Source of the DNA: an uncultured Bacilli bacterium
Lineage (GTDB): Bacteria > Bacillota_I > Bacilli_A > RF39 > UBA660
Assembly: GCA_934130045.1 (NCBI GenBank)
Contig: CAKOXI010000005.1
Location: forward strand, 1 to 62,482
DNA length: 62,482 nt
Direction of reading: 5' to 3'
Position numbers and translations under genes: made by a program. Within the stretch, counting starts at the first letter, position 1. Each line of letters starts with the position of its first letter. This document shows positions 2,498 through 40,558 of this stretch, piece after piece. Under the pieces are notes generated by a model, which had not been told where the DNA came from, searched no databases, and worked only from the letters and a program-made list of their open reading frames with translations.

Positions 2498-2499
2498 TT

Positions 2500-5400: not shown

Positions 5401-5925
5401 ACTGGTGGGCAAGTATCTAAATCAAGTCCAAAGGGTTCTATTGCGTCTTTTGCAACGAGTGGTAAAAAACAATGTAAGAAGGATTTAGCACGTATTGCTT
5501 TATCAATTCCAAATGTTTATGTAGCCCAAGTATCACTTGGAGCTAACATGATACAATTTATTAAAGCTTTAAAAGAAGCTGAAGCACATATCGGACCTTC
5601 TATAATTATCGCATATTCTACTTGTATATCCCATGGTATAAAGGGAGGAATGCAAAATAGTTTAGAAATGCAAAGAAAGGCTGTTCAATGTGGATATTAT
5701 CCAATTTTTAGATATAATCCTTTAAATGATAACTTTATATTAGATAGTAAAAATGTTGATTTTGATTTATATGATGAGTTTTTAAATTCACAAACTAGAT
5801 ATTCAGCATTAAAAAAGATATGTGATGATGCAGACAGTTTATTAAAAAGTAATAAAGAAGAGGCAATTAAAAGATATAAATATTATAAGTCGTTAGAAAG
5901 TAGTAGTGGTAATGATGAAATATAA
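2500..5925 (+). CDS. nifJ: Pyruvate:ferredoxin (flavodoxin) oxidoreductase, single-polypeptide PFOR
   Basis: N-terminal DGNEA...YPITPASPM. Two 4Fe-4S motifs (CIQCNQCSFVCP, CTGCGICIKTCP). TPP-binding GGDGWAYDIGFGG. ATG at 2500 preferred over the GTG at 2494 that overlaps the upstream stop. Confidence 0.93.
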   Translation: MKKIITVDGNEACSYASYMFTEVAGIYPITPASPMAEHIDEWSNKHVLNLFNDTVHIVEMQSEAGAIGMVHGALQSGLLATTYTASQGLLLMIPNMYKIAGEMLPCVIHVAARSIASHALSIFGDHQDIYATRMTGFCNLASSSVQDSFYMSLVAHLSTITSSIPFLHFFDGFRTSHEIDKIEVLDIEDVRPLVDFKSIQKFRNRALNLNNKVTRGTAQNDDIYFQALEVRNKYYNNVPDIVNNYMENINKIANTDYKPFMYYGDKLAKNIIVAMGSVCETIKETIDELNKNNYCVGLIEVHLYRPFSLKYFFNVLPKSVEKIAVLDRTKEPGSIGEPLYLDIVNALSNKNVKIVGGRYGLGSKNTTPAQIKAVYDMLNSDLKNNFTIGINDDVTNLSLDVDDNFKINNHDEFLIYGFGSDGMVGASKSIIKLIGDNTNKYVQGYFQYDSKKSGGVTISHLRFSDSIINSTYYVENPKLVVVSKDSYLNEFELLDNIQENGTFILNTQMTDLELNKKLTKKIKQIIKSKNINFYVINAYELARKVGLNNKISIIMESVIIKFANLIDYEFAKEKIKEYVRQKFFKKGEDVVNANLSAIEDYHLYLRKFDVDDENYGNEIAVDLKNVYDAMTKRRGYDLSVSAFLKYPDGTFEGGTSCLEKRGINDLVPSWISENCIQCNQCSFVCPHSVIRPFLLNDMEYKSAPDYVKNRCVKSIGSNNYYCLAISIKDCTGCGICIKTCPGKKNEKALIIKKLKEQLDIGEQKLFDYLSKNISYKNDFKIDTVKGSQFKTPKFEYCGACSGCGEVSYLKVLTQLFGDSIIIANATGCSSIYGGSAPITPYKLPWANSLFEDNAEYGYGMLVANNTARNRIKNIMSDNLKGKNGKLFELWLNNYDNYEVTKNVYDNLDYNDCPKELIQLKEYIPYRSIWTVGGDGWAYDIGFGGIDHVLASSDNVNILVLDTQVYSNTGGQVSKSSPKGSIASFATSGKKQCKKDLARIALSIPNVYVAQVSLGANMIQFIKALKEAEAHIGPSIIIAYSTCISHGIKGGMQNSLEMQRKAVQCGYYPIFRYNPLNDNFILDSKNVDFDLYDEFLNSQTRYSALKKICDDADSLLKSNKEEAIKRYKYYKSLESSSGNDEI

Positions 5926-6340
5926 AAGTTTGATAATTTTTGATGTTGCTAAAAGAAGTGATATTCTTGCTATAGCTTTATGCAAAGATAGCAAGAAAAT
6001 AAATCCTTTACCAAATGATAGATACGCAATTAATTGTTTTTTTCATGACGATAAACATCCATCGATGATATTAGATAGAAAAAACAATAGATATTATTGT
6101 CATTGTTGTAAAGAAACTGGTAACGCTATTGATTTACTTATGAATCTTTATAATTTAAAATTTATAACTAGTGTGGAAACTTTGGCATATACTTTTAATA
6201 TTAGTTTACCTAAAAGGTATAATGTTGATGTTGATTATAGTGTAGCTAATAAAATAAAAAATATAGTTAATTCTGAGAGTTATAAAGATTTAATAAATGG
6301 TAGTTATCAGAAAACATTAAAAAAGACATTAAAAAAATAA
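5906..6340 (+). CDS. Stand-alone CHC2 (DnaG-primase-type) zinc-finger protein
   Basis: CFFHDDKHPSMILDRKNNRYYCHCC matches the CxxH-x-P-S...CxxC primase zinc finger. No Toprim or helicase-binding part. Start uncertain (GTG 5906, ATG 5912 or 5915); overlaps the PFOR 3' end. Confidence 0.6.
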   Translation: MVMMKYKSLIIFDVAKRSDILAIALCKDSKKINPLPNDRYAINCFFHDDKHPSMILDRKNNRYYCHCCKETGNAIDLLMNLYNLKFITSVETLAYTFNISLPKRYNVDVDYSVANKIKNIVNSESYKDLINGSYQKTLKKTLKK

Positions 6341-6364
6341 CTGAGAAATCAGTTATTTTTTTTG
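6337..6364. terminator. Bidirectional intrinsic terminator between convergent genes
   Basis: ATAACTGA (6337-6344) / TCAGTTAT (6349-6356) with GAAA loop, A-run upstream and T-run downstream. Both convergent stop codons (6338-6340 on + and 6353-6355 on -) lie inside the stem. Confidence 0.7.
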
Positions 6365-6976
6365 AAAATATTTAGAAATAATTGCTTCAAATGTACTATA
6401 TTCAGAATATCCAACTTGTGAATCTACAATTTTACCATCTTTAACAATTAACATCATTGGTGTATAACCATAAGCAGTATTTTCACCCTTAAAGAAATCT
6501 TCATCAAGAGCAATTATTCTGTTTGCGTCATCTTGGCTTACAGTAGTTATATCTAGATATAATGGTTGTAAATCATAGTTTGATTGAATTTGTTTTAAAA
6601 CAGGTAAAAATTTAACACAATATCCGCATGTAGCTCTACCTAAATATATAAGTTGAGTTTCACTACCGTTATATGCTTCAATAAATTCATCAGTATCAAT
6701 TGCTTTAAAACTACTTACATCGTATGTTGTATTATCACTACTAGTTGTAGTAGTTTTTGTAGTATCGTTAGTTTCACTATTACTACTTCCTTTAATTGCT
6801 GATATAATTAAATTTAATGCTAATAATGCAATTATGATATATAAACATACCAATATTTTATTAAAAAATGGTGTGTTATCAAATGAAATAGTTTCTTTTA
6901 CTACTGAATTATGTGCATTTTCATATTTGTCGCTTGTATCATAAATATCTTCTGTTTTTTTTGTACTCTTTGCCAT
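6353..6976 (-). CDS. Membrane-anchored thioredoxin-like thiol:disulfide oxidoreductase
   Basis: One TM helix, Thr/Ser-rich linker, thioredoxin fold with CGYC active site. GGAGG sits 8 nt upstream of the ATG at 6976, so that start is preferred over the ORF-track start at 6991. Confidence 0.75.
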   Translation of the reverse strand: MAKSTKKTEDIYDTSDKYENAHNSVVKETISFDNTPFFNKILVCLYIIIALLALNLIISAIKGSSNSETNDTTKTTTTSSDNTTYDVSSFKAIDTDEFIEAYNGSETQLIYLGRATCGYCVKFLPVLKQIQSNYDLQPLYLDITTVSQDDANRIIALDEDFFKGENTAYGYTPMMLIVKDGKIVDSQVGYSEYSTFEAIISKYFQKK

Positions 6977-7063
6977 ATCTTTTACCTCCATGATAATTTT
7001 AACATATCTATTTTAGTGTTTCAATATAAAAAACAAATTTCATTTAATTTTCACATAATTATA

Positions 7064-7321
7064 TTAAAGTTTACTTTTTAAAAATTTTTCAAACATTGGT
7101 AATCCATAATTTTTATCATAGTAATTTGGAAATTCATTTAAGTGTGCTAAAGCTATCTTAGCAGTTTTTTCTAAATCATTATTTGTTACGTTTGTTTTTA
7201 AATTAACGGTTCCATGTTCTAATTCTATATTTAATCCAGTTAAAAAATCTTCAACTGTGAATTTATCAAATAATATACCTAATTTATTAGCAATGTAAGT
7301 CGCATCTTTTTTTTCAAACAT
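7064..7321 (-). CDS. Small conserved hypothetical protein (DUF5661-like, from memory)
   Basis: Motif LEHGTVN...TNNDLEKTAKIALAHLNEFPNYY. ATG at 7321 with GGTGA RBS preferred over the TTG at 7336. Confidence 0.45.
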   Translation of the reverse strand: MFEKKDATYIANKLGILFDKFTVEDFLTGLNIELEHGTVNLKTNVTNNDLEKTAKIALAHLNEFPNYYDKNYGLPMFEKFLKSKL

Positions 7322-7418
7322 AATATCACCATTCAAATTATATGTTTAAATATGATACATTATTGATAATATTATCAGCAAATGATATAATATTTATGCT
7401 TATAGTGGAGGATATTTT

Positions 7419-7952
7419 ATGAAGAAAAATTTGTTATATATTTTTTTAGTTGTTTTTTTGATGAGTGGTTGTAGTAGTGAAAATATAGATAAAACAATAG
7501 ATAATGAAAATTTAAATAAAGTAAATAGTGAAGAAAATAGTATTCAAAATGATAATTTAAATATTAATGATAGTGAATATGGTGATGTTCAAAATGATAA
7601 TTTGAGTGATATAGATGAATCTAATTTTTATGTAATAGGTGCACAAAAATTTAAAGAAATGGTAAATAGTGATGAAAAATATTTATTTTTTATTGGTAGA
7701 GATACATGTCCTGCTTGCAAACAGTTTAAACAAATAGCGTCTTCTTTTTCTAGTAAAGAAAAAATAAATATTTATTATGTAAATACAACTGATTTCAATC
7801 AAAATGAATGGAATACTGTAACTGAAATTGTAGATATTAGTTATATTCCTACTATTATAGTTAGTTATAATTCTAAAATTTTATATAATGAGTATGGTGT
7901 TCATCAATATGATAAATTAAAGAATTTAGTTGATGAATATAGTTTAAAATAA
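7419..7952 (+). CDS. Thioredoxin-like lipoprotein
   Basis: Lipobox LMSGC, Asn/Asp-rich linker, CPAC active site in FFIGRDTCPACKQF. Paralogous layout to the 6353-6976 gene (YLGRATCGYCVKF). Confidence 0.75.
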   Translation: MKKNLLYIFLVVFLMSGCSSENIDKTIDNENLNKVNSEENSIQNDNLNINDSEYGDVQNDNLSDIDESNFYVIGAQKFKEMVNSDEKYLFFIGRDTCPACKQFKQIASSFSSKEKINIYYVNTTDFNQNEWNTVTEIVDISYIPTIIVSYNSKILYNEYGVHQYDKLKNLVDEYSLK

Positions 7953-8016: not shown

Positions 8017-8943
8017 ATGAAAATAAAAATTAAATCATATTGTGGTAGATTAGGATTTATTTTAAGAAAATTAATTCCAAATGTTTGCAGTAATTCATAT
8101 CTTTTTTTTCAAAGAAGACTTTCAAATTTACCTAATCTAAAATATATGACATTAAAAGGTGATTATTATATACCGTTATTTGTAAATATTGAAACCATAA
8201 ATAAATGTAATGGATTATGTTCTTTTTGTACCTGTAATGTTAAAGAAGATAAAAGAAAATTACTTATAATGGATGATACATTATTTAAAAAGATAATATC
8301 TGATTTAGAAAAAATTAATTATGACGGTGTAATAACTCTTAACATAAATAATGAACCATTTTTAGATAAAACTTTAATTGATAAATTAAAATATGTTAGA
8401 AAAAAAATACCTAAAGCATATTCCTATTTATATACAAATGGCAGTATGCTTAATGTTAAATTAATGCAAGAAATTATTGATTTTAAACTTTTAGATGAAT
8501 TGGTAATTAATAATTATAATACTAGTTATGAATTAAATAATCACAATAAAAAATTATATAATTTTTTTAAAGACGAAGATTTAGATTTTAAGGTTACTAT
8601 AAATTTAAGATATGTTCATGAAGTTTTAAGTAATAGGGCAAATACTTCTCCAAATAAAATGGGTAAAAAAATAATTAATTCTTATTGTTCAATTCCATTT
8701 ACTGATTTAAATATTTTTCCAAATGGTAATATTGGAATTTGTTGCTGTGATACTAGGGAAATTACTAATTTTGGAAATGCTTTAAATGAAAATTTAATTG
8801 ATATTTTTAATAATAATAAATTTAAGAATTTAAGGGAAAAATTAGTAAATGGTAGAAATAATAATGAATTTTGTAAATTTTGCGATTTTAACGATATTGG
8901 TACAAGAAGAAAAAGAATTAAAAATAAATTAAAAAATAAATAG
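8017..8943 (+). CDS. Radical SAM protein with Cys-rich SPASM/twitch-like C-terminus
   Basis: CNGLCSFC (CX3CX2C) near the N-terminus. C-terminal cysteines CSIPF...GICCCD...CKFCDF. Confidence 0.75.
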   Translation: MKIKIKSYCGRLGFILRKLIPNVCSNSYLFFQRRLSNLPNLKYMTLKGDYYIPLFVNIETINKCNGLCSFCTCNVKEDKRKLLIMDDTLFKKIISDLEKINYDGVITLNINNEPFLDKTLIDKLKYVRKKIPKAYSYLYTNGSMLNVKLMQEIIDFKLLDELVINNYNTSYELNNHNKKLYNFFKDEDLDFKVTINLRYVHEVLSNRANTSPNKMGKKIINSYCSIPFTDLNIFPNGNIGICCCDTREITNFGNALNENLIDIFNNNKFKNLREKLVNGRNNNEFCKFCDFNDIGTRRKRIKNKLKNK

Positions 8944-8956
8944 AAATGGTGATACT

Positions 8957-10702
8957 GTGCAAAAAAAGTTAGAATTTGTATTAAAAAATAAATATAAATT
9001 GCTTACATTGACTTTGTTTTTGTTCTTTTTTATTCAAATGCAATTTGTATTTTTTTATGGTGATGATTTTGAAGTTTTATATCCTATTCATAATAATCAT
9101 GAAATTTTTAATATATTGAATTTTTGTTTTGATAAATTAAATTATTTTTGGTTTCAATGGTCAGGAAGAATAATAGGTCATGCCGTTGTAACCTTTGGTT
9201 TATCTTTTTTTGGAATTAATTTTTTTAGAATTTTAAATCCAATTATGGTATTAATTTTTGTTTATTTAATTTTAAAAATTCTTAAATTATTTAAACAATT
9301 TAATTTTGAAAAATTATTTTTTTATTTTTCATTTATATTTTTAGGAATGAATGTTTATTTATCTAGAGAAATATTATATTGGGCTTATTCTAGTATTCTT
9401 TATTTATGGGGATTTAATTTAATTTTATTTGTAATCTATATTGTATATAAAAATTATCTTGAAAACAAAAAGATAGAAAAAGATTACTTTATTTGGGTTA
9501 TAATAGCAACTGTTTCTTCTGTTTTTATTTTAGAACAATTTAGTTTTATATTAATATTCTTTTTTTCAATAATGTTTTATTTTTCTTGGAAAAATCATAA
9601 AAATTATAAACAAATTTTTGCCTTACTATGTGTATTAGTATTATCTATTATTGTGTATTTAATGGCTCCCGGTAGATTTCTTCGTACAAAACCTTTAGTA
9701 GAAGAACTTGAATTATATAATAACATTCAAATTATTTTAGGTAAAACTCACTCTTTATTTAATATTATATTTAATCCTAAATTACTTGGAATGTATATTT
9801 CTATATTTATGCTGTTATTAAGTAAAAAATATTTAAGTATAATTAATAATAAATTTAGATATAAAATACCATATATTTTTATATTGAGTTATTTTTTTAT
9901 ATTAATAATATCCAAATTTTTTAATATAAATTTATTACTCTTTAATGAAACTTATGATGCGATGAATCCATTATATAAAATATCTTTTTTATCAACTGTT
10001 GAAAAAACATTATTAATTAGTGCACTTGTATTAATAATATTATATTATATAGCTCTTATTATTAATTTATTTTATATGGTATATAAAGTTTTTTATAAAG
10101 AAAATAAATTTTTGTTTTATATGCTTTTAATTGGGTTTGGAACAACAATTATTACTGCTGTTCTTATTAGATATATTGGAATGCGTTATTATGTTTATTT
10201 TTTAATTTCTATTTTATTCTTGTCTATTTATTTAATTTTGGATTTGAAAAACAATTCTTTTGATATAAAATCATTATTTTTTCTTGGATGTTCATTACCA
10301 TATAATTATTCAATAGCAGTATCGGTTATTATATTGATAATATTATTTATGAATGATAAATTATATAAAAAAATGTCTAAAAATTCTAATAAGATTGTTT
10401 ATTTATTATGCATTTTAATTTGTTTGTTTAATTTATTTGATACATTTTTTGGATACGTTAGAAATAGTAAAATATATAAAAAAAATGAAGAACTTTTAAT
10501 TAATACAAATGATGATATTGCATTTTCAATTGATGCGATTCCTGATAGTGATAAACTATATGGTTGGCACACTATAAATACTAGATGGAATGTTACTGAT
10601 AAGTATTATGGATTTTATCTTAATAAATTTTATAAATCTTATTATGGAATTAATATGGATAATGTATATATAAAAACAGAGGATGGTTATTATGTTAGGT
10701 AG
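8957..10702 (+). CDS. Polytopic integral membrane protein, GT-C-like (function unknown)
   Basis: 581 aa, almost entirely hydrophobic helices. Acidic YGDDFE motif directly after TM1. Hydrophilic ~80-aa C-terminus. Confidence 0.5.
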   Translation: MQKKLEFVLKNKYKLLTLTLFLFFFIQMQFVFFYGDDFEVLYPIHNNHEIFNILNFCFDKLNYFWFQWSGRIIGHAVVTFGLSFFGINFFRILNPIMVLIFVYLILKILKLFKQFNFEKLFFYFSFIFLGMNVYLSREILYWAYSSILYLWGFNLILFVIYIVYKNYLENKKIEKDYFIWVIIATVSSVFILEQFSFILIFFFSIMFYFSWKNHKNYKQIFALLCVLVLSIIVYLMAPGRFLRTKPLVEELELYNNIQIILGKTHSLFNIIFNPKLLGMYISIFMLLLSKKYLSIINNKFRYKIPYIFILSYFFILIISKFFNINLLLFNETYDAMNPLYKISFLSTVEKTLLISALVLIILYYIALIINLFYMVYKVFYKENKFLFYMLLIGFGTTIITAVLIRYIGMRYYVYFLISILFLSIYLILDLKNNSFDIKSLFFLGCSLPYNYSIAVSVIILIILFMNDKLYKKMSKNSNKIVYLLCILICLFNLFDTFFGYVRNSKIYKKNEELLINTNDDIAFSIDAIPDSDKLYGWHTINTRWNVTDKYYGFYLNKFYKSYYGINMDNVYIKTEDGYYVR

Positions 10703-12485
10703 TATTATTTATATTTTTTCATTTATTTTACTAATAAGCACTTTTTTATTAATAAAAAAAAGTGATAAGAAATTAAATATTATAAAATGGTTATTTATTG
10801 CATTTGTATTAATTTTTTGTTTAAATTCAGTAATTGTTTTTATATTAAGTTATATTGGTATTAAAAGCAATCTTATTACTATTAGTATAATATATATAAT
10901 TTTAAGTTTATTTATTATTTTATTTTATCTAACTAAAGAAAGGCAAAAGTATTTTTTTAATAAAAAGGATTTAATTTATATTGGTGTTATTTTTGTAGTT
11001 GTTTTAGTTATTTCTATTATAAGGTTTGGATTTCCATTTTCTATTGTTTATCAAACATTTGATCCAGCAATTCATTATCAAAGTTCTTATAGTTTCTATA
11101 AGTATTCTTATTTATTAAATTTTGTTCAGGAAAAAACTATGCTGAATTTTGAAACTTGGAGATTTGCTTCTTATACAAATTTAGGAATAATTTTTAAAAT
11201 TTTTTCATGTTTTATGAATGAAAATAACTTTTATAATTTATATATATTATTTGATTTATTTACATTATTTTTAACAGGAGTATTATTTTATTTTCTAATT
11301 GATAATAATAAAAACAGAATTGTAAAACTAATAGGATGTATAATTTTTATTTGTGGATATCCCTTGAATAATTTAATAATTGGATTCTTTTATGTTGGTC
11401 ATGCATCTTTAATAATTATTTCTATTTTTTTAATTATAAATGAATTAGAAAGAAAATATATTAATAATATTTTATTATTTATTTTAAATATTGGTTTAAT
11501 GTTTACTTATTATTTGTATGTTCCAATTATTTATTGTGCTGAATTTTTATATTTTATAAAGAATAGAGAAAAAAGATTATTTTCTAAATCTATTTTATTA
11601 TTTGGAATACCTATAATTTTGGGCTTTTTATATTTTATATATCCAACATTTTCTAATAATGATATGAATTTAGGCAATCAAATTCATCTGGATGGTTACT
11701 TTTATAATGATGTTATTGGAAATACACTTTTGTTTTTACCAATTGCAAGCTTTTATTTTTATTATAAATTAAAAGAGAAAAAAATTAATTTTGAAATGAT
11801 AGCATTCATTGTATTAATAAGTTTTATGATTATTTTAAATATTTGTATGCTTTTAAATATTATATTACCTTATTATGTTTCAAAATATTATTATATATTA
11901 TGGATATTTTGTTTCATTATTTTATTTAAAACATTTGATGAGTATTATTCACTCAATAAATTTGTATTTAAAAATTATGCGATATTTATGCTATTTACTA
12001 TAGTTTTGTCTATAAGTAATATAGAAAATGCAATTATTAATTTAAATGAAGGAGAACATAATAAAACTACACCAAATATGTTATTTAATGTTTATAATTA
12101 TAATTTAAAAGAAATTATTAATCCAGTTATTGTATTTAATAATAATGAATTAAATGAAATAAAGAATGTATCCAAAAATATAGATATAGATTTTTATACA
12201 AATACGGAACCTGAAAGAATTATGTGGTTAATTAATTTTATTAATAATGGAAAACTTGATTGTCCAGTAAATTATACTTATGAATGTTTAAAAAAGAATT
12301 ATTATATGGAATTAGATGATTATGTTAATACTAGGGATAATAAAAAAAATTTTATTTTTTTTCCAAGAACTATATATTGGAAAGAATTATATAGTAGTGA
12401 TATTTTAAATACTGCTACATATTTAGAAGAAAAAAATTTTTTAATAGAAAGTTATAATTCATTTATTGTAATTAGAGGTAATTAG
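10692..12485 (+). CDS. Polytopic integral membrane protein, paralogue A (GT-C-like layout)
   Basis: About 450 aa of TM helices plus a ~150-aa hydrophilic C-terminal domain. Shares RFGFPFSIVYQTFDP, LDGYFYN and KKINFEMI with the 14183-16111 product. ATG at 10692 with GAGGA RBS preferred. Confidence 0.5.
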   Translation: MLGSIIYIFSFILLISTFLLIKKSDKKLNIIKWLFIAFVLIFCLNSVIVFILSYIGIKSNLITISIIYIILSLFIILFYLTKERQKYFFNKKDLIYIGVIFVVVLVISIIRFGFPFSIVYQTFDPAIHYQSSYSFYKYSYLLNFVQEKTMLNFETWRFASYTNLGIIFKIFSCFMNENNFYNLYILFDLFTLFLTGVLFYFLIDNNKNRIVKLIGCIIFICGYPLNNLIIGFFYVGHASLIIISIFLIINELERKYINNILLFILNIGLMFTYYLYVPIIYCAEFLYFIKNREKRLFSKSILLFGIPIILGFLYFIYPTFSNNDMNLGNQIHLDGYFYNDVIGNTLLFLPIASFYFYYKLKEKKINFEMIAFIVLISFMIILNICMLLNIILPYYVSKYYYILWIFCFIILFKTFDEYYSLNKFVFKNYAIFMLFTIVLSISNIENAIINLNEGEHNKTTPNMLFNVYNYNLKEIINPVIVFNNNELNEIKNVSKNIDIDFYTNTEPERIMWLINFINNGKLDCPVNYTYECLKKNYYMELDDYVNTRDNKKNFIFFPRTIYWKELYSSDILNTATYLEEKNFLIESYNSFIVIRGN

Positions 12486-12487
12486 TA

Positions 12488-14176
12488 ATGAAAAAATACA
12501 TATTAACTACAATTATTATGTTGTTTGGTTTAACATCCCTTTTATTAATTTGTAATTTTTTTAATACAAATAAAATCAATGAAAATGTTACAAAAAGCAT
12601 GGAAACTTATAATTATTTTGATAGTAAAAAGTTTAATTTAGATATTGATAATTATACTGATATGATAATGCTAAATATTATGTCATATAATGATAATTCT
12701 ATTATAAAGAGAAGTTTTGATAATAAATATGGAATTATGTATATTGATAAATTTGGTGATAAAGAAGTATATTGGAATCAATTTGAAAACTTGATTTCTA
12801 CTTTAGAAAAAAGAAATGATGATGTTATTTTATATGGAAGATTTTGGCATGGTTACCAAATAATATTAAAACCATTACTTATGGTATTTACATATCAACA
12901 ATCTTTATTTTTTCTTTCAATAATAGGTATTTTTTTAATCGTATTTTCTTGTTTTCTTTTATTTAAAAAAACAAATTTTAAAATACTTATGAGCTATTTA
13001 TTTTCTCTTTTATCACTTAATATATTTGTTTTTAATACTTGTTATCAATATTATTTTTCAATGATATTAATGATTGTTTTTAATATAATAATTTTGTTAA
13101 ACTATAAACTTCAAAAATTTGATTACAAATTTATGTTTTATATTTTTGGTTGTTTAACTGCTTATTTTTTGTTTATTAGTTTTCCACTAATTACCTTATG
13201 TTTTCCATTATTATTGTTTATGATATTGGAGTTTTCTAATAATAAATTTGAAAATTATAAGGAAAATATTTTAAAAATTATTAAATCTAGTATATTTTGG
13301 ATTTTGGGATATGTTTTATTCTTTTCATTAAAATGGATAATAGGAAGTTTATTTGGTAGTGAAAATTTTTTGGAAAATGCTTTAATGGCAATTAATCAAA
13401 GATTAGGATTAACATTTTCATTTAAGTATATTGATATTTTAAAATTGAACTTAGCATATTTCTTTAATTTTAAATTTAATATTATTTTGGTTTTCAGTTC
13501 TTTAATTATTATTTTTATTCAAATGCGTAAAAATTTTACTATAAAATTAAAGATTATTTCTCCATTTTTATTAATTTTTTTAATGCCATTTATTTGGATG
13601 TTTATATGTAATAATCATAGTGGTGTTCATTATTGGATGATTTCTAGATTGTTTTCGATATCAATTTTTTCACTATTATTTATTAGTTACTTCTTACTAT
13701 CAAATAAACAGTATAATGAAATAGAACATTTAAAAATAGATGATTATTTATTTTTATTAATTACTTTAATGTTTTTTATCTTGTATAAGTTTAATTTTAT
13801 ATTTATAATTTTATGTTTATTTATAATTTTTAAATATCACAAAAATAAAACATTAAATATATATATTATTTTATTAATAATTTTAAGTACATTATTATCT
13901 ATTAATAAATTTTTTGATAAACGTATTTTTAATGATAGTTTATTTTATGAAAATATATATAAAGAACTTTATCATAAAGCTATAATGTATGGAGAAGAGT
14001 ACGCAAAGAAAAATAATATATTTGTTGATACTAAAGTTGAACTTCATGATTTAATAGATATAATTAATTCCGATAGTGTTTTTTTACTTAGTTGTGATGG
14101 TTATATTATAGTTAATAATGAAAGTGTTACTCCATATATTGATTGTAATAATAAAATAAATATTAAAAATAATTAG
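12488..14176 (+). CDS. Polytopic integral membrane protein (function unknown)
   Basis: 562 aa. N-terminal TM, ~110-aa loop (YGRFWHGYQ), many TM helices, ~100-aa hydrophilic C-terminus. Tightly packed in the same operon. Confidence 0.45.
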   Translation: MKKYILTTIIMLFGLTSLLLICNFFNTNKINENVTKSMETYNYFDSKKFNLDIDNYTDMIMLNIMSYNDNSIIKRSFDNKYGIMYIDKFGDKEVYWNQFENLISTLEKRNDDVILYGRFWHGYQIILKPLLMVFTYQQSLFFLSIIGIFLIVFSCFLLFKKTNFKILMSYLFSLLSLNIFVFNTCYQYYFSMILMIVFNIIILLNYKLQKFDYKFMFYIFGCLTAYFLFISFPLITLCFPLLLFMILEFSNNKFENYKENILKIIKSSIFWILGYVLFFSLKWIIGSLFGSENFLENALMAINQRLGLTFSFKYIDILKLNLAYFFNFKFNIILVFSSLIIIFIQMRKNFTIKLKIISPFLLIFLMPFIWMFICNNHSGVHYWMISRLFSISIFSLLFISYFLLSNKQYNEIEHLKIDDYLFLLITLMFFILYKFNFIFIILCLFIIFKYHKNKTLNIYIILLIILSTLLSINKFFDKRIFNDSLFYENIYKELYHKAIMYGEEYAKKNNIFVDTKVELHDLIDIINSDSVFLLSCDGYIIVNNESVTPYIDCNNKINIKNN

Positions 14177-14182
14177 AAAAGG

Positions 14183-16111
14183 GTGAGTTGTTTGATTAAT
14201 TCTATTATATATTTAATTTCTTTTATTATTTTGGTTACAACTTTTATGCTTTTGAAAAAATCTTTAAATAAACAAAATGTGTTAATGTGGATTTTTTTAT
14301 CTTTTATGTTAATGTTTTGTTATAATTCAGTAGTAGTTTTTATATTAAGTTTATTTTATATAAAAAGTACATTATTGATTTTATCAATTGTTAATTTTTT
14401 GTTTTCAGTATTATTTTTATTACATATTTTTAAAACCAAAACAATACAAAAATATTATTTAAAAAAATTTGATTTATTAGCTATTTTCATAATAGTATTA
14501 GCAACTATTATTATTGGATACTTTCGATTTGGATTTCCCTTTAAAATAGTTTATGAAACTTGCGATCCTGGAACTCATTTTTGGACATCTATGGAATTTT
14601 TTAGAGAATCAATTTTATTAAATAAAGCGATAGTAACTGTAGATTTTTCTTCTCGTGTGTTTGGTTCTTATGTAAATATGGGAATAATTTTTAAAATTTT
14701 TTATCCTTATGTTGGGTACATAAATTTATATTTTATCTATATTCTTTATGATTTATTTATGTTAGCTATGTCAGGAATTACCTTTTACTTTTTGATAAGA
14801 TATATTTGTAAGGAAAATAAAGGTTTATTTGCTTTAATCTTTAGTATAATTTATTTTACAGGTTATCCTTTAAATAGTATGATATTTGGTTTTTTCTATT
14901 CGGGACATGTTGTAACTTTAATTTGTATTTTAATACTTTTATATAAATTTTTTGATAATAAGGAAATTAGTTATAAATTCAATTTGATACTTTTAATGAT
15001 TGTTAATATAGGTATATGTTTTGCTTATTATCTTTATTTACCAATACTATTTGTTTGTGAAACAATATATTTTATTTATTTAAAGAAAACTAAACAAATT
15101 GATAAAAATAATTTGCTAAAATCCTTTTTATTAGTTATAATTTTACCTTTAATTCTTACTTTATCGTATTTTGTATTTCCTTATATTGGTAATAATCAAC
15201 ATAGTATTTTTTATCAGTTAAGTTTAGATGGATATTTTTATAATAGTTATTTTTCTAATTTTATTTTATTTGTTCCTATAATTGTTTACTATATTATAAA
15301 TATGTTGAAAAATAAAAAATTAAATTTTGAAATGATTTTATTATTTAGTGTAATCAGTTTTATAATATTTATTATAATTTTATCTATCATGAATATTGCT
15401 ATGCAGTATTATGCTTCTAAGTTTTTTTATACATTATGGCTTGTTAATTTTATTTTGATATTTGATTTTTATATAAAAAACGATATAAAAAAATTATACT
15501 TAAATATCTATATAGCTTCGTTTTTACTTGTTCTTATCTTTACTGTATTTAGTATTGAAGATAAATTATATGATCAAAATAAATCATTTGGTAATAGGAT
15601 TGAATCATTAAATCTTTTGAATGTATATAATTGGAATATTGATAAAATTAAATATTCAAATATAACTTTCACACCAGATGAAATAAAAATCATAAAAGAA
15701 TTATATAATTTGGGTGCTTATAATGTTATAAATAATTTTATTCATTCATTTAATTCACAAAGATTATGGTTAAATGCATTTTTTTGGAATCAAAGATTAG
15801 ATTATCCTGAAAATGAAGTATATGATTATATGGTAAAGGATGTATTTTTTGATCCAATTAATTATAATAGTTATAAAAAAATGGATAATAATTATAAATA
15901 TTTTGTTATTTTTTATAGGGAATATGATCCTAGAAAATGGGATGGTTATAGTGAAGTTTATCCTTATGAAGTTCAAAGAAGATGGAATGCTAATTTTAGA
16001 AAAGATTATACAATTAATAGAATTTATGATTATATTAAAATAGATAGAAATACATGTGTTAATTGTAAATTTATTGATTTTGATACAGGTGTTATAATTA
16101 TTAAAGGATAA
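14183..16111 (+). CDS. Polytopic integral membrane protein, paralogue B (GT-C-like layout)
   Basis: Collinear similarity to the 10692-12485 product (RFGFPFKIVYETCDP, LDGYFYN, KKLNFEMI) with a longer hydrophilic C-terminal domain. Start is GTG 14183 or TTG 14192. Confidence 0.5.
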   Translation: MSCLINSIIYLISFIILVTTFMLLKKSLNKQNVLMWIFLSFMLMFCYNSVVVFILSLFYIKSTLLILSIVNFLFSVLFLLHIFKTKTIQKYYLKKFDLLAIFIIVLATIIIGYFRFGFPFKIVYETCDPGTHFWTSMEFFRESILLNKAIVTVDFSSRVFGSYVNMGIIFKIFYPYVGYINLYFIYILYDLFMLAMSGITFYFLIRYICKENKGLFALIFSIIYFTGYPLNSMIFGFFYSGHVVTLICILILLYKFFDNKEISYKFNLILLMIVNIGICFAYYLYLPILFVCETIYFIYLKKTKQIDKNNLLKSFLLVIILPLILTLSYFVFPYIGNNQHSIFYQLSLDGYFYNSYFSNFILFVPIIVYYIINMLKNKKLNFEMILLFSVISFIIFIIILSIMNIAMQYYASKFFYTLWLVNFILIFDFYIKNDIKKLYLNIYIASFLLVLIFTVFSIEDKLYDQNKSFGNRIESLNLLNVYNWNIDKIKYSNITFTPDEIKIIKELYNLGAYNVINNFIHSFNSQRLWLNAFFWNQRLDYPENEVYDYMVKDVFFDPINYNSYKKMDNNYKYFVIFYREYDPRKWDGYSEVYPYEVQRRWNANFRKDYTINRIYDYIKIDRNTCVNCKFIDFDTGVIIIKG

Positions 16112-16146
16112 TAATTATATTATTTAAAGTAGGAGAGAATTTAATT

Positions 16147-17871
16147 ATGAAAAGGTTGAGAAAAATATTTTTAATATTTTTAATAATTTTAAATTTTTTG
16201 TCTATAGTTTTAGGATTTAGAAATTTAGATTCTATCTCAAACGAAAGTTTATTATTATCATTATGTATAATTTTGTTTACAAACTTTATAATTTTTATAA
16301 AATGGAAACCATTATTAAATATTAAATTAAATTCTAAATTATTAATTTTTTCTTTAATTTTAACTATTTTATTTTGTATTATGTTACCATTAAATTTTTG
16401 CTTAGATAGAATATATTTGTATAATTATATTCCAATTATTAATTTAATCATAAAAATAATTTTTTCTATTTCATTATTTATTTCAATATTTATAATTATT
16501 ATGTTATTATTTTCATGTAATTTAAAGCATGATAAATGTTTAAATAAAACAAAAAAAGTAATGAAAATAATCATTTTTGTAATAAGTTTATTTTTTATAA
16601 TGAGTACAAGCACTGGTTTTTACGATTATGATTTTCAAAGTATATGGAGTTATGAAGTTGAAGGATTAAGTAACTGGCATACATTCTCATTTATGTTTCT
16701 TATCTATTTTGTAAAAATTATCTTTGGTAATCCTTATCCCATAATAATTTTTAATTTATTTTTATATGTATATTATTTTAATTACGCTATTGATTTAATC
16801 GACAAATATAGTAATAAAAAATCTCTTGTTTATTTATTTTTCTTTTTTAATTTATTTTCAGTAGTATGCTTTGAACAACTTAGATATGTAAAAAAAGATG
16901 TTTTATTTGCTTTAGGGTTTTGTAATTTAATTTTAACTTTTTTTGATTATTTAAATAGTAAAAAATTTTCGGTAAAATTATTTTTAAAAATGTTATTTTT
17001 TTCTATAATCACATCTTTATTTAGACATGGTGGAATATTGTTAACAGTTTTTTTCTTTATCATAATGTTGATATATTTAGTCATAAAAAAAATATATAAG
17101 CAAGTACTATATCCGATTATTTTAGTTGGTATTAATATTATTTTATATTTACTTTTAAACTACATTGGTTTTAATGTATTAAATGGATATAATTATCCTA
17201 AAAATGTTACATATACTGTTCCTATTTATCAGGTTGGAGCTTTTGCGCATGATGGATATGAATTCTCTGAATTAGAAAAAGATTATTTAAAAAATTATTT
17301 ATCAGTTGATTATATGAAAGAGCATTTTGTTAAATATAATGGTGATGCTTTGGCAAGAATTTATATAAATAATTATAATTTTGATTATAGTAAATTAATT
17401 AATTTAAATTATAAATTATTAAGAAAAAATCCAATATTTTATGTGCGTTCTTTATTAGATTTAACTAATATTTTATGGAAGATAGAAAAGGAATATTCTG
17501 AATGGCAAAAATTTTTTTATAAGGTTGAGTCTAGTGAATTACTTGATAAATACAAAGATACAACTATTAAATGGCAGGAAACCTTTTTAAATAAAATTGT
17601 TGATCGTGCTGTAAATATTTGTTTAAAAAGTGTTTTCTTTAATTTAAGAGTTAGAGGTGGATTTCCTTTATTTATAATATTTGTATCAATATTTTTATTA
17701 ATTTATAAAAAACAAAAAATATATTTATTACCAATTTGTGTCGTTTTATTTTGGGAATGTTGTTTATTTTTAAGTTTACCAACGGGTATGACTAGATATG
17801 TATTACCATTTATAAATATTTATCCATTTCTGTTCTGTTTTTCATTAGGAATTGATAAAAATTCTAATTAA
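16147..17871 (+). CDS. Polytopic integral membrane protein (function unknown)
   Basis: 574 aa, many TM helices with one ~150-aa hydrophilic region near the C-terminal third. AGGAG RBS. Confidence 0.45.
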   Translation: MKRLRKIFLIFLIILNFLSIVLGFRNLDSISNESLLLSLCIILFTNFIIFIKWKPLLNIKLNSKLLIFSLILTILFCIMLPLNFCLDRIYLYNYIPIINLIIKIIFSISLFISIFIIIMLLFSCNLKHDKCLNKTKKVMKIIIFVISLFFIMSTSTGFYDYDFQSIWSYEVEGLSNWHTFSFMFLIYFVKIIFGNPYPIIIFNLFLYVYYFNYAIDLIDKYSNKKSLVYLFFFFNLFSVVCFEQLRYVKKDVLFALGFCNLILTFFDYLNSKKFSVKLFLKMLFFSIITSLFRHGGILLTVFFFIIMLIYLVIKKIYKQVLYPIILVGINIILYLLLNYIGFNVLNGYNYPKNVTYTVPIYQVGAFAHDGYEFSELEKDYLKNYLSVDYMKEHFVKYNGDALARIYINNYNFDYSKLINLNYKLLRKNPIFYVRSLLDLTNILWKIEKEYSEWQKFFYKVESSELLDKYKDTTIKWQETFLNKIVDRAVNICLKSVFFNLRVRGGFPLFIIFVSIFLLIYKKQKIYLLPICVVLFWECCLFLSLPTGMTRYVLPFINIYPFLFCFSLGIDKNSN

Positions 17872-18176
17872 TATACGATAGCAACTGCCATTGTATATTT
17901 TTTTTCATGTGATATAGATAATTTTATATTACTATTATTTGAACAATATGGACTTCCAAATTTGTCTGTTAGAATTTCAAAATCTAAAAAACAATATTTT
18001 TTTGTATTTGGCATTGCTTTCATTATTGCTTCTTTAGCTGCAAATCTACCACATAAATATAAATTTCCTTTTTTCTTAAATTCAATTTGTTCTTTTTCAG
18101 TTAATATAAAATCAATAAATCTTTGTTCTTTATTTTCTAATCTTTTATTTTTTATAATATCGCAACCTATATTCAT
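17868..18176 (-). CDS. acpS: Holo-[acyl-carrier-protein] synthase (4'-phosphopantetheinyl transferase)
   Basis: MNIGCDII...GRFAAKEAIMKA...LSISHEKKYTMAVAIV is collinear with AcpS. GGAGG sits 10 nt upstream of the ATG at 18176 (the ORF track extends to 18236). Its stop overlaps the convergent upstream gene by 4 nt. Confidence 0.8.
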   Translation of the reverse strand: MNIGCDIIKNKRLENKEQRFIDFILTEKEQIEFKKKGNLYLCGRFAAKEAIMKAMPNTKKYCFLDFEILTDKFGSPYCSNNSNIKLSISHEKKYTMAVAIVY

Positions 18177-18299
18177 AGTATTAGTACCTCCAAATTTATT
18201 TAATTCTATTTTATCTTTATTTTTTTTTATATGCAATAGATTAATTTAATTAATTTATTTGAAATATTTATATTATTGTTATATAATTGATATGGTGAT

Positions 18300-20084
18300 A
18301 TGATGATTGAACTACAGTATCCATTTGATGTTGATTATATATTTCAAAATAAAAGAAAAATAAAAAAACAGTTGTTATTAAAACAAAATTTAATTGAAAA
18401 AAATATTGCGATTTTAGGTGGTTCTACAACTGGTGAGATAAAAAATATTTTAGAAATTTTTTTATTAAATTATGGAATTAAACCTAATTTTTATGAATCT
18501 AAATATAACATGTATTATGAAGATGCAATGTTCTTTAATGATGAGTTAATTAATTTTAAACCTGATATTGTATATATACATACAACTTTAAAAAATATTT
18601 TAAAGTTTCCAACTATTAATGATAATGAAGAAAAAATAAATGATTTATTAGATAGTCAATATTTAAAATTTGAAAGTATGTGGAATAGTATCTATAAAAA
18701 ATTTAATTCAGTTATAATTCAAAATAATTTTGAGTATCCGAGTTATAGATTACTTGGAAATAAAGATGCTAGTGATATCCATGGGAAAATAAATTTTATT
18801 ACAAAGTTGAATCAAAGATTTTATGATTATGCTAATAAAAATAGAAATTTTTTTATTAATGATATAAATTATGTATCATCTTGTTATGGATTAGATAAAT
18901 GGTTAAATGATTTTTATTGGCATCAATATAAATATGCTATGGATTTTTCTGCAATACCATATTTAGCTTTTAATTTAGCTAATATTATAAAATCTATTTA
19001 TGGATATAATAAGAAATCAGTAATATTAGATTTAGATAATACATTATGGGGTGGAGTTATTAGTGAAGATGGTCTTGATAAAATAAAGATAGGTAATGGT
19101 AATCCTATAGGGGAAGCTTATTTAGAGTTTCAAAAATATTTAAAAGAATTAAAAAGCATTGGAATTGTTTTAAATATAAATTCTAAAAATTATTATGAAG
19201 ATGCAATAATGGGATTAAATAGTCAGTTTTGCCTATTGAAACCTAATGATTTTGTTATTATTAAAAGTAATTGGGAAAACAAAAATATAAATGTTGATTC
19301 TATTGTTCATGATTTAAATTTGGGGAATGAAGCTTTTGTTTTTGTTGATGATAATCCTGTAGAAAGAAATTTGGTAAGAATTAGTAATATTGGTGTTTCT
19401 GTTCCAGAGGTAAATAAAATAGAAGAATACATTAAAATTATTGATCACAATGGCTATTTTGAGATAACTAATTTTTCTAATGAGGATTTAAATAAAACTG
19501 AGTTATATAAATCAAATCTTAAAAGAAGTGAAAATGTGAAAATGTATAATAATTATAGAGATTATTTGTTATCACTTAATATGGTTGCTGAAATTGAATC
19601 ATTTAAATCAATTTATATGGATAGAATTTGTCAACTTATAAATAAAAGTAATCAGTTTAATTTAACGACTAAAAGATATTCATGCTCTAGTCTTGAGGCA
19701 ATCAAAAATGATAATAGTTTTATTACTTTATATGGTAAATTATCTGATATTTATGGTGATAATGGATTAGTATCAATAGTTATTGGAAAGATAAAAGAAG
19801 ATTTTACTTTGCATATTGACTTATGGGTTATGAGTTGTAGAGTTTTAAAACGTGATTTAGAGTTTGCAATGATGAATAAACTTGTGAATGTTGCTAAAAA
19901 AAATCATTTAAAATACATATATGGATATTATTATCCTACTTTAAAAAATGAAATGGTTAGTGATTTTTATAGTAAATGTGGATTTGAAGAAATTTCAAAT
20001 ACCTGTGATAGTAAAATATACAAATTAGATATATTAAATTTTAATTATATGGATGTACCAATTGAGGTGAAGAATAATGCATGA
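18300..20084 (+). CDS. FkbH-like HAD-IIIC family protein with GNAT-like C-terminal domain
   Basis: LDLDNTLWGGVISEDG (DxDxT), NINSKN, FVDDNPVERN, and C-terminal WVMSCRVLKRDLE, which is typical of the FkbH family. Confidence 0.8.
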   Translation: MMIELQYPFDVDYIFQNKRKIKKQLLLKQNLIEKNIAILGGSTTGEIKNILEIFLLNYGIKPNFYESKYNMYYEDAMFFNDELINFKPDIVYIHTTLKNILKFPTINDNEEKINDLLDSQYLKFESMWNSIYKKFNSVIIQNNFEYPSYRLLGNKDASDIHGKINFITKLNQRFYDYANKNRNFFINDINYVSSCYGLDKWLNDFYWHQYKYAMDFSAIPYLAFNLANIIKSIYGYNKKSVILDLDNTLWGGVISEDGLDKIKIGNGNPIGEAYLEFQKYLKELKSIGIVLNINSKNYYEDAIMGLNSQFCLLKPNDFVIIKSNWENKNINVDSIVHDLNLGNEAFVFVDDNPVERNLVRISNIGVSVPEVNKIEEYIKIIDHNGYFEITNFSNEDLNKTELYKSNLKRSENVKMYNNYRDYLLSLNMVAEIESFKSIYMDRICQLINKSNQFNLTTKRYSCSSLEAIKNDNSFITLYGKLSDIYGDNGLVSIVIGKIKEDFTLHIDLWVMSCRVLKRDLEFAMMNKLVNVAKKNHLKYIYGYYYPTLKNEMVSDFYSKCGFEEISNTCDSKIYKLDILNFNYMDVPIEVKNNA

Positions 20085-20322
20085 AAAAGATATTTATGAT
20101 AAATTAAATAAAGTATTTCAAACAGTATTTGATGATGATAGTATTGTAGTCAATTGTTCTACAAATTCTAGTGATATTGCTGATTGGGATAGCTTAGAAC
20201 ATATAAATTTGCTTGTTGCAGTTGAAAAAAGCTTTGGTATTAAATTTGATATGAGTGAAGTAATAGATATGAATAATGTTGGTGATATGGTAAAAATTAT
20301 ATTATTAAAATTAAACAAATAG
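20077..20322 (+). CDS. Acyl/peptidyl carrier protein
   Basis: 81 aa. Phosphopantetheine-attachment type motif DIADWDSLEHINL. The ATG overlaps the stop of the FkbH-like gene (ATGCATGA). Confidence 0.8.
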   Translation: MHEKDIYDKLNKVFQTVFDDDSIVVNCSTNSSDIADWDSLEHINLLVAVEKSFGIKFDMSEVIDMNNVGDMVKIILLKLNK

Positions 20323-21874: not shown

Positions 21875-22909
21875 ATGAAAAAAATATTTAAAATTATTTG
21901 CTTTACTTCAATTTTAATTTTATTATGGAAGTATGTATTTTCTATATTGTGGTTACCAAAAAACAATATATCTTTTTTCTATGATGAGAAAGAAAATAGT
22001 ATTGATGTTATATATATTGGGGGTAGTAATGTTCATCATCATTTCAATAATTTATTAGCATACCACCTATATGGATTTACTACTTATCTTTTATCATCCG
22101 GAATTCAGCAATTTACACTTACAAAATCTCTTATTGAAGAATCAAGAAAATATCAAAATCCTAAATTGTATGTTATTGACCTAGCAAGATTAACTGATGA
22201 TTTTGAATCATCCTATAATGAACCATGGGGGAGATTTGTAGTTGATTCTCTTAAAAATTCTAAAACTAGAACAATGGCAATTAATGAAATGTTAGAATAT
22301 GCTAAAGTAGAAAAATCACAATATATAAATTATTATTTTAGTTTTTTTAAATATCATAACAGCTGGAAAGATATTAATAGGCAAAGTTTTAATAGCACTT
22401 TAAATGAATTTAAAGGTTATTATGCTTATGATTATGCATTTGAAGTAAATCCACAGGAAACATTTGTATGGAAAGATGATATTGAGCCATTAGAACCTGA
22501 TAATGAAAAAGTTTTACTTGATTTAATTGAGTATATAGAAAATAATGATTTAAATGTTTTATTTGTAATTCCTAAAAGTACTTTTTGGACACCTAATTAT
22601 GAAAGACTTAATTATGCAACTGAAATTATTAAAAAGCACAATTTGGATATTATAAATTTTAATAAATTAGATGATATTGATTTAAATTATGAAACAGATT
22701 TTTATGATAAGATTCATTTAAACGTATATGGTGCAACCAAATATACACTGTATTTTTCAAAATATTTAAAAGAAAAATATAATCTAGGTAATAATCAAGA
22801 TGATGAAATATTTTCTTCTTGGAACCAAGAGTATAATAGATTTGTAGATAAATTTAATAATGTTACTGGAGAAAATTTTGAAAGTATTTTAGAAAGATAT
22901 TTAAAATAA
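21875..22909 (+). CDS. N-terminally anchored SGNH/DltD-like (DHHW-type) extracytoplasmic acyltransferase or esterase, copy 1
   Basis: Single N-terminal TM. Block I-like YIGGSNV. Block V-like DFYDKIHLNVYG (DxxH). Directly downstream of the MBOAT gene. Confidence 0.6.
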   Translation: MKKIFKIICFTSILILLWKYVFSILWLPKNNISFFYDEKENSIDVIYIGGSNVHHHFNNLLAYHLYGFTTYLLSSGIQQFTLTKSLIEESRKYQNPKLYVIDLARLTDDFESSYNEPWGRFVVDSLKNSKTRTMAINEMLEYAKVEKSQYINYYFSFFKYHNSWKDINRQSFNSTLNEFKGYYAYDYAFEVNPQETFVWKDDIEPLEPDNEKVLLDLIEYIENNDLNVLFVIPKSTFWTPNYERLNYATEIIKKHNLDIINFNKLDDIDLNYETDFYDKIHLNVYGATKYTLYFSKYLKEKYNLGNNQDDEIFSSWNQEYNRFVDKFNNVTGENFESILERYLK

Positions 22910-22945
22910 TAATTGTTATATGCGATAATGAAATAGGTGGTTTTT

Positions 22946-40471: not shown

Positions 40472-40558
40472 TTTGTACATTTTGTATCCAAATGTCCTTT
40501 AATGTGTATACATTATTGTACTAAAATATCTTTTGTCAAAGAAAGGAAGATATTGAAT

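Follow-up and report, generated by a model that had tools for sequence, protein, structure and literature searches.

The stretch of DNA analysed here (62,482 nucleotides (nt), contig CAKOXI010000005.1 of the uncultured Bacilli bacterium assembly GCA_934130045.1; the whole stretch is called the window below) carries at positions 8017-17871 of the plus strand six open reading frames (ORFs), which encode a radical S-adenosylmethionine (SAM) protein and then five polytopic membrane proteins, labelled M1-M5 in gene order. We read this locus, with a probability of roughly 0.6, as one operon for extracytoplasmic glycosylation, in which an array of glycosyltransferases of the GT-C fold is fed by a sugar donor tailored by the radical SAM enzyme.

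The radical SAM gene (8017-8943, 308 amino acids (aa)) is followed by M1 (8957-10702, 581 aa), M2 (10692-12485, 597 aa, or 600 aa if translated from the ATG at 10683), M3 (12488-14176, 562 aa), M4 (14183-16111, 642 aa, or 639 aa if the TTG at 14192 is the start), and M5 (16147-17871, 574 aa). The gaps are 13 nt (radical SAM/M1), 2 nt (M2/M3), 6 nt (M3/M4), and 35 nt (M4/M5), and the M1/M2 junction is an overlap of 11 or 20 nt, depending on the M2 start chosen. Thus the ORFs and spacings agree with the initial annotation, made from the sequence alone, which had described a radical SAM protein and five polytopic proteins of 562-642 aa with tight junctions, and the motifs that it quoted are all present: CNGLCSFC (residues 64-71), CSIPF, GICCCD, and CKFCDF in the radical SAM protein, and YGDDFE in M1. 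Shine-Dalgarno-like sequences (AGAGG, AGGAG or GGTGA) precede each start. For M2 the start at 10692 is preferred, given an AGAGG 9 nt upstream and an independent gene call of 597 aa; an identical metagenome contig, processed by an independent gene caller, has the same genes, with M2 of 597 aa and M4 of 639 aa. The G+C content is 17-19% across the locus and 17-28% over the whole window, and scans for promoters and terminators gave no useful signal in such AT-rich DNA (185 promoter-like sites, where 205 would be expected; no terminator found). A Pfam scan of the six genes found no GT-A or GT-B glycosyltransferase, Wzx/Wzy or polysaccharide ATP-binding cassette (ABC) gene, in line with the initial annotation. 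The window also encodes MraZ, MraW, two PBP2B-type transpeptidases, MraY, FtsW, and SpoVAD; therefore the host, a bacterium of the gut, has a peptidoglycan wall and sporulation genes.

M1 matches the Pfam family PF19528 (50.7 bits against a cut-off of 27, E 1.5e-13) over residues 12-566 and model positions 7-435 of 442. This family is DUF6056, shown as GT_STM0557_N in a precomputed table, where the identical gene and its orthologues have the same assignment. The operon STM0557-0559 is a Salmonella gtr operon that adds glucose in alpha-1,4 linkage to the O-antigen galactose (PMC3688519). The YGDDFE motif stands straight after the first transmembrane (TM) helix of M1, and in the M1 family the position is occupied by Y(G/A)DD(F/Y), with the DD pair invariant in all seven sequences, including two divergent paralogues. 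By family assignment and motif, M1 is predicted to be a GtrC-type GT-C glycosyltransferase.

M2 and M4, recognised as paralogues in the initial annotation, are 38% identical over 583 columns (E 2.6e-103), and no other pair among M1-M5 was significant by BLASTP. M2 has three extra N-terminal TM helices, then a core TM helix with the loop RFGFPF..D127..H131, and a C-terminal alpha/beta domain of about 130-155 aa; the hydrophilic C-terminal tails noticed earlier in both proteins measure approximately 156 aa in M2 and 182 aa in M4. In family searches, which covered 5.8 billion clustered proteins, the M2/M4 family comprised 37 clusters, none of them named, and has no Pfam or NCBIfam model. Residue D127 is invariant in 28 family sequences (M4 included in the alignment); in the loop behind the fourth helix, D127, H131, and N166 are conserved throughout the family, and M4 shares the invariant residues. 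The AlphaFold (AF2) model of M2, computed from the family alignment, had a predicted local distance difference test score (pLDDT) of 87.6 and a predicted template modelling score (pTM) of 0.90. When this model was compared with the PDB by Foldseek, the top 16 matches were all GT-C enzymes: ArnT (the best, E 2.9e-4), PglB, STT3, AftA, Pmt4, PimE, and ALG9, with TM-scores of 0.43-0.47; transporters appeared only below them, with probabilities of at most 0.06. M2 is thus, as modelled, an orphan-family protein of the GT-C fold, and the same assignment would follow for M4 from its identity to M2. Homologues of M2 at 30-33% identity sit inside wall-polysaccharide clusters of the Wzm/Wzt (ABC-transporter) type, together with many genes of glycosyltransferase families 2 and 4 (GT2, GT4), GtrA_DPMS_TM, Glucos_trans_II, and DUF2142 genes, and GtrA_DPMS_TM-GT2 fusions.

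M5 belongs to another family without a Pfam or NCBIfam model (23 clusters, none named). It has four N-terminal TM helices, then a TM helix with the loop STGFYDYDF, a 150-aa hydrophilic insert (residues 346-500), and three C-terminal TM helices; D160 and D162 of STGFYDxDF, R293, and H294 are invariant in 21 family sequences. The AF2 model was of moderate quality (pLDDT 78, pTM 0.83). All of its top 30 Foldseek matches were GT-C enzymes, with E of at least 0.018, and the top ones were protein O-mannosyltransferases; the best match, to the Pmt1-Pmt2 chain 6p25_B, had E 0.018, probability 1.0, and a root-mean-square deviation of 4.7 A over 261 columns. Like M2, M5 is, judging by its model, an orphan-family GT-C-fold protein. 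A second, divergent member of the M5 family (32% identity) was found off the array, after a Mur ligase gene, in a Bacilli metagenome-assembled genome (MAG) from rabbit gut (L033, 9481-11232).

In M3, the first TM helix leads into a loop of about 100 aa that contains IDNYTD and YGRYWHG; approximately 11 TM helices follow, and the protein ends in a domain of 85 aa in which cysteines are conserved. Its family includes 44 clusters, none named, and Pfam and NCBIfam scans of all 26 family members yielded only noise. D58 is conserved in at least 90% of the 26 sequences, and D54 and D58 are invariant in 13 close members. By hhalign, the M3 family matches the M2 family weakly, with a probability of 74% (E 2.9e-5). 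Clostridia, Bacteroidales, and Desulfovibrio piger have homologues of about 420 aa, which in 11 of 19 loci abut a GT2 gene, nine of these at E 1e-100 or lower against the GT2 query. The adjoining GT2 protein is about 315 aa long, with two C-terminal TM helices, and its best NCBIfam matches were AglJ, dolichyl-phosphate hexose transferase, PpgS, and ArnC, all under the equivalog cut-offs. This classical gtrB-gtrC arrangement around the homologues is the main argument for reading M3 as a lipid-linked-sugar transferase, and M3 is therefore a putative GtrC-like enzyme of this kind.

In sum of database evidence, Pfam and NCBIfam had no match for M2-M5, and a PDB sequence search with the M2/M4, M3, and M5 family profiles returned nothing even at E 10. 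Profile-profile comparison of the four membrane families with one another and with DUF6044, PMT_2, and two other neighbour families detected only the weak M2-M3 link; hence, M2/M4 excepted, the array is not a simple tandem duplication. The three families without a Pfam or NCBIfam model (M2/M4, M3, and M5) are new GT-C-like families. Hydropathy segmentation of the TM helices was too crude for the full topology or the C-terminal side, and only the N-terminal part, where the charge bias is clear, was used. There the loops preceding the acidic-loop TM helix are rich in lysine and arginine: MQKKLEFVLKNKYK in M1, KKSDKK and TKERQKYFFNKKD in M2, MKK in M3, and MKRLRK, KWKPLLNIKLNSK, and NLKHDKCLNKTKKVMK in M5. 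According to the positive-inside rule, the acidic loops should therefore face outward, and M2 and M5 would be GT-C cores behind three and four extra helices, respectively. The initial annotation had proposed a GT-C layout, and had named three observations that would speak against it: a transporter-like predicted fold, non-conserved acidic residues, and a lack of co-occurrence in related genomes. All three were checked, and none was observed. M1 falls into PF19528, and the M2 and M5 models match GT-C structures; the acidic residues are invariant in M1 (DD), M2/M4 (D127), and M5 (D160/D162), and conserved in at least 90% of sequences in M3 (D58); and the gene order recurs in related MAGs, as described below.

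The radical SAM protein, which has no hydrophobic segment and no TM helix, scores above the cut-offs for both Pfam Radical_SAM (30.6 bits) and SPASM (36.9 bits). The cluster-binding CX3CX2C site (C64/C68/C71) is invariant in 11 full-length orthologues, as are the cysteines and G237 of a single auxiliary-cluster pattern, C224-x12-G237-x4-C242 ... C286-x2-C289. Such a combination, CX3CX2C plus one auxiliary 4Fe-4S site (CX9-15GX4C ... CX2C), is that of BtrN-like twitch enzymes; the C-terminal cysteines number only four or five and do not form the seven-cysteine SPASM pattern with two auxiliary clusters. The sole PDB sequence match was BtrN (E 4.3e-20, residues 52-296), with the auxiliary cysteines in register. 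By these sequence features the protein is a predicted BtrN-like enzyme with one auxiliary-cluster (twitch-like SPASM) domain. BtrN itself (PDB 4M7T), the 2-deoxy-scyllo-inosamine dehydrogenase of butirosin biosynthesis, whose substrate has a sugar-like ring, has the same CX3CX2C site, one aligned auxiliary cluster, and a core of about 250 aa. Unlike BtrN, the protein studied here has about 50 additional N-terminal residues, a basic and conserved segment, and its gene neighbours are glycosyltransferases, with no aminoglycoside biosynthesis genes nearby. NeoN and HygY, also sugar-acting twitch radical SAM enzymes, are related to BtrN. An exhaustive search found 7229 relatives at E<1e-3 and 266 clusters (50%-identity representatives) at E<1e-30; among relatives with about 36% identity there are fusions with a GT4 domain, a GT2 domain or the C-terminal domain of a sugar C-methyltransferase. 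Assignment as an anaerobic sulfatase maturase was also considered, and rejected.

When metagenomes were scanned with the orthologue alignment, more than 563 loci were detected, 80 of which were kept; 76 of these had an intact radical SAM gene. Within four genes of it we found a GtrB-like GT2 gene in 35 of the 76 loci, DUF6044 in 31, an SGNH/GDSL protein in 25, a PRK07208-type flavin adenine dinucleotide (FAD) oxidoreductase in 24, a PMT_2-type GT-C in 18, and an MBOAT protein in five. DUF6044 is the commonest direct neighbour, adjacent in 25 of the 76 loci. Large polytopic proteins make up 49 of 140 (35%) adjacent genes, compared with 19 of 249 (7.6%) genes at least five positions away. DUF6044 (PF19510) is an uncharacterised polytopic family of 560-580 aa, recognised in the loci with Pfam E-values as low as 5e-180; it takes the position next to the radical SAM gene that M1 or M2 takes here, but has no detectable profile similarity to M1, M2/M4, M3 or M5. 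The FAD oxidoreductase, which is not encoded in the window, might serve the radical SAM enzyme as a redox partner. One example is a 524-aa protein (L069, 9020-10594) that matches NCBIfam PRK07208 ('hypothetical protein', E 2e-232) and Pfam Amino_oxidase.

MAGs under the titles "uncultured Bacilli bacterium" and "uncultured Tenericutes bacterium UMGS1045" contain the closest loci. The order radical SAM-M1-M2-M3-M4-M5 recurs in GCA_964408085.1 (L001), and a rabbit-gut Bacilli MAG (L022) contains the radical SAM gene, M1, M2, and M3 up to the contig end. Two further relatives (L005 and L006) have M1 and M3 only, between the same flanks, to which L005 adds a carbamoyltransferase-like gene. One of the shared flanks consists of PFOR, CHC2 zinc-finger, and thioredoxin-like genes, and the opposite flank of Tex and an MBL-fold gene. 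Since the gene content differs between relatives and the flanks are constant, the site is a variable island, the core of which is formed by M1 and M3. In the window, L001, L022, L036, and L040, the radical SAM gene goes together with a gene of the M2 family; L005 and L006 lack it.

Several observations on individual islands should also be mentioned. In the window, genes of PedC-like thioredoxin lipoproteins (6353-7952) and tex (24033-26177) bound the glycosylation island. In L001, the M4 homologue (11736-13676) is split into ORFs of 352 and 255 aa by a frameshift or an assembly error, and two further DUF6056 paralogues with a YADDY motif (1936-5242) lie upstream of the radical SAM gene. The L005 island encodes a 479-aa protein, the carbamoyltransferase-like protein (607 aa), a 189-aa membrane protein, M1, and M3. 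In L117 (258-2374), beside an M3 identical to that of the window, M2 is present as three ORFs of 109, 508, and 87 aa, which suggests strain-level disruption or an assembly error. Finally, L004 (CAYOYB010000005.1) has the same array, with proteins 48-62% identical to those of the window, under the title 'uncultured Muribaculaceae'; judging by synteny and G+C content, this title is probably a taxonomic or binning error.

The variability of the island bears on an alternative that is possible, if clearly less probable than a co-functioning operon: the array could be a set of alternative, independently acting decorators in a variable island for antigenic variation or phage-receptor masking, rather than enzymes that act in sequence, and some copies may be inactive. 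Differences between MAGs (the reduced sets of L005 and L006, the extra DUF6056 genes and split M4 of L001) are as expected from this, and Salmonella genomes likewise hold several gtrC families each. However, the tight junctions and the identical order from the radical SAM gene to M5, seen in at least two species-level relatives, speak in favour of genes that function together. The alternative, moreover, overlaps the explanation by one glycosylation operon rather than excluding it.

In the mechanism that we propose, each of M1-M5 would draw its sugar from a polyprenyl-phosphate-linked donor on the outside of the membrane, with the conserved aspartate in the first large external loop of each GT-C used in the transfer. 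Five enzymes could serve five linkages or acceptors, or build a side chain stepwise. The cytoplasmic radical SAM enzyme, by analogy with BtrN only, would most likely abstract a hydrogen from a sugar carbon and so oxidise or epimerise the sugar; its substrate may be a nucleotide-sugar or a lipid-linked sugar produced by a GtrB-type GT2 encoded elsewhere, and the resulting non-standard donor may be used mainly by the M2/M4-type enzymes. The initial annotation had also placed the radical SAM enzyme on the sugar or lipid donor. This gains indirect support from the kinship with BtrN, the glycosyltransferase fusions, and the GtrB-like neighbours; the substrate and reaction themselves are inferred. 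Pfam scans of the window and phmmer with a GtrB-like query found neither a GtrB-like GT2 nor a GtrA-type flippase in the 62 kb, and adjacent gtrA and gtrB genes, as in a gtrABC-type three-gene operon, are likewise absent from the window. With no donor-making gene in the window, donor supply is assumed; both the GT2 that makes the donor and the flippase must lie elsewhere in the genome.

This absence counts against the proposed operon function, and so do several other points. No nucleotide-sugar gene is found in the 62-kb window. The substrate of BtrN is an aminocyclitol and not a lipid-linked sugar. Distant homologues of M2 function without a nearby radical SAM gene. In the Foldseek comparisons, M2 reached an E-value of only 2.9e-4 and M5 one of 0.018, at TM-scores between 0.3 and 0.47, and the putative GT-C reading of M3 draws on gene context and the weak profile link to M2. 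Nor are the locus counts independent: clustering of the radical SAM proteins at 90% identity reduces the 76 loci to 37 clusters, and at 70% to seven, five of which show the GT2 association. Lastly, literature searches found no relevant paper on radical SAM enzymes in connection with GT-C enzymes, undecaprenyl, capsules or twitch/sugar chemistry, none on DUF6056 or DUF6044, and no experiment or publication that ties this radical SAM family to glycosylation.

The acceptor is expected to be a cell-envelope polymer, and a wall- or membrane-anchored polysaccharide or teichoic acid seems likely, as it fits the contexts of the homologues. Alternatively, the GT-C enzymes may glycosylate proteins (S-layer, spore-surface proteins or lipoproteins) in the manner of the protein O-mannosyltransferases or PglB/AglB. 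Such a role is consistent with the best matches of M5, which are protein O-mannosyltransferases, with PglB and STT3 among the matches of M2, with AglJ, an enzyme of S-layer N-glycosylation, among the best matches of the M3-associated GT2, and with the secreted thioredoxin-like lipoproteins encoded by flanking genes. We nevertheless consider it unlikely: matches to the GT-C fold do not discriminate between acceptors, the top match of M2 is ArnT, which acts on lipid A, distant M2 homologues reside in Wzm/Wzt-type clusters, and the M1 family is named after an O-antigen glucosyltransferase.

That the radical SAM/SPASM protein is a maturase of a ribosomally synthesised and post-translationally modified peptide (RiPP) or of a cofactor, with the membrane proteins located nearby by chance or exporting the product, is improbable. 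Most characterised SPASM enzymes do modify peptides, and weak NCBIfam matches to peptide and cofactor maturases were obtained, all of them far under the cut-offs; however, the protein has one auxiliary cysteine set, BtrN is the one relative with a solved structure, fusions with GT2 and GT4 domains occur among relatives, and no peptide-recognition domain was found by Pfam. A precursor peptide gene would not fit into the intergenic DNA, which measures 64 nt upstream and 13 nt downstream of the radical SAM gene, the membrane proteins are not transporter-like, and the neighbours of the orthologues are GT2, GT-C, SGNH, and MBOAT genes, not peptidases or ABC exporters. Least probable of all is that the membrane proteins are transporters, permeases or polymerases and ligases of the Wzy/WaaL type, as their many TM helices and the lack of family assignment for three of the four families might suggest, because M1 has a GT-C-type Pfam assignment, transporters rank below GT-C enzymes in Foldseek with probabilities of at most 0.06, and no Wzy, WaaL or SEDS protein was matched in Pfam or NCBIfam or is among the listed Foldseek matches of M2 and M5.

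The glycosylation operon proposed here resembles the GtrA/GtrB/GtrC systems of Salmonella and Shigella phages, where likewise a polytopic GT-C on the outer face decorates a surface polymer with sugar from a polyprenyl-phosphate carrier: M1 belongs to the STM0557 GtrC family, and GtrB-type GT2 genes adjoin the loci of M3-family proteins and of radical SAM orthologues. Gram-positive three-component systems include CsbB/GtcA/YfhO, acting on the teichoic acids of Bacillus and Listeria, and GacI/J/K/L of group A Streptococcus. In contrast to three-component systems, the window has a run of five GT-C genes, lacks gtrA and gtrB over its whole 62 kb, and has no database model for three of its four GT-C families; besides, a radical SAM enzyme heads the operon, and no described system with such a component was found in the literature. 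A second parallel is the assembly of arabinogalactan and lipoarabinomannan in mycobacteria and corynebacteria by EmbA/B/C, AftA-D, and PimE with DprE1/DprE2, as well as the Arn pathway (ArnC/ArnD/ArnT). There, too, several different GT-C enzymes use polyprenyl-phosphate sugars to build or decorate an extracytoplasmic polymer, and the lipid-carried sugar is altered, being epimerised by DprE1/DprE2 or deformylated by ArnD. AftA, EmbB/C, PimE, and ArnT are among the structural matches of M2 and M5. The differences are that no sequence relationship exists, that the tailoring enzyme proposed here is an oxygen-independent radical SAM protein, and that the host is a low-GC Firmicute.

GT-C decoration fed by lipid-linked sugars is known, and the five-gene stack is new, as is the recurrent partnership of the radical SAM gene with glycosylation genes, on which no literature was found. 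We tentatively suggest, as a view that may well prove wrong, that the BtrN-like radical SAM family, which is widespread and undescribed, is a fourth component of three-component glycosylation in anaerobes, tailoring the donor sugar for a dedicated GT-C. Such enzymes would carry out an O2-independent oxidation, epimerisation or deoxygenation of the polyprenyl-phosphate sugar or its nucleotide precursor, as an anaerobic counterpart of DprE1/DprE2 or ArnD tailoring, and the unusual donors would be installed on the cell surface by M2/M4-type, DUF6044, and PMT_2-type enzymes. GT-C enzymes set the surface chemistry met by phages, antibodies, and host lectins, and divergent families often escape annotation; in the lineage studied here, five to eight GT-C-type enzymes are stacked in one operon. 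The more useful lead is the radical SAM gene, with its large family, glycosyltransferase fusions, and recurrent GtrB- and GT-C-type neighbours in gut and rumen metagenomes. If the enzyme does tailor the donor sugar, it would add a new enzymatic step to the way in which anaerobes glycosylate their surfaces, and would provide unusual sugars.

Directly downstream of M5, an AcpS-type phosphopantetheinyl transferase (17868-18236; Pfam ACPS, E 2.9e-11) is encoded on the minus strand, convergent with the operon. It is followed on the plus strand by an acylation cassette: an FkbH-like loader (18300-20084; TIGR01686, E 5e-65), an acyl carrier protein (ACP; 20077-20322, 81 aa), a DltB-like protein (20340-21866) that belongs to Pfam MBOAT and matches LTA_dltB with E 6.5e-36 but under the cut-off, and two paralogous single-TM proteins (21875-22909 and 22937-23989; 344 and 350 aa) without Pfam matches. 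The FkbH-like loader suggests that a glyceryl- or hydroxyacyl-type group, rather than D-alanine, is moved to a surface polymer. The initial annotation had considered that the ACP/MBOAT cassette, which abuts the locus, may form one system with it. The adjacency holds, and a homologue of the MBOAT gene is found near a radical SAM orthologue, but the convergent AcpS gene places the operon and the FkbH/ACP/MBOAT cassette in separate transcription units, and the cassette is absent from the related loci L001 and L005. The cassette is not an obligate partner of the operon, and its probable target is a surface polymer, either the one that the operon decorates or a different one; the two seem to be parts of the same broad toolkit for surface-polymer decoration rather than one obligate system. 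The homologue mentioned above was observed on a metagenome contig of 41% G+C from another taxon (L041), where an MBOAT and 501-aa protein pair (13123-16046) is located downstream of the radical SAM orthologue at a distance of four to five genes, with DUF6044, GT2, and GDSL genes in between; the window MBOAT is homologous to that of L041 with E 1e-72, and the partner proteins with E 6e-20 and 2.5e-18.

Some other features of the window deserve mention. A small stand-alone ORF with a CHC2 (DnaG-type) zinc finger (5906-6340) overlaps the end of the PFOR gene, and this position is kept in L005 and L116. A 1149-aa ORF (36364-39813) has no Pfam match, and a 1387-aa ORF (40457-44620) carries two MMPL domains. 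An Abi_2 (abortive-infection-like) gene (49321-50322) is located directly after ftsW, among the genes of cell division and cell wall synthesis.

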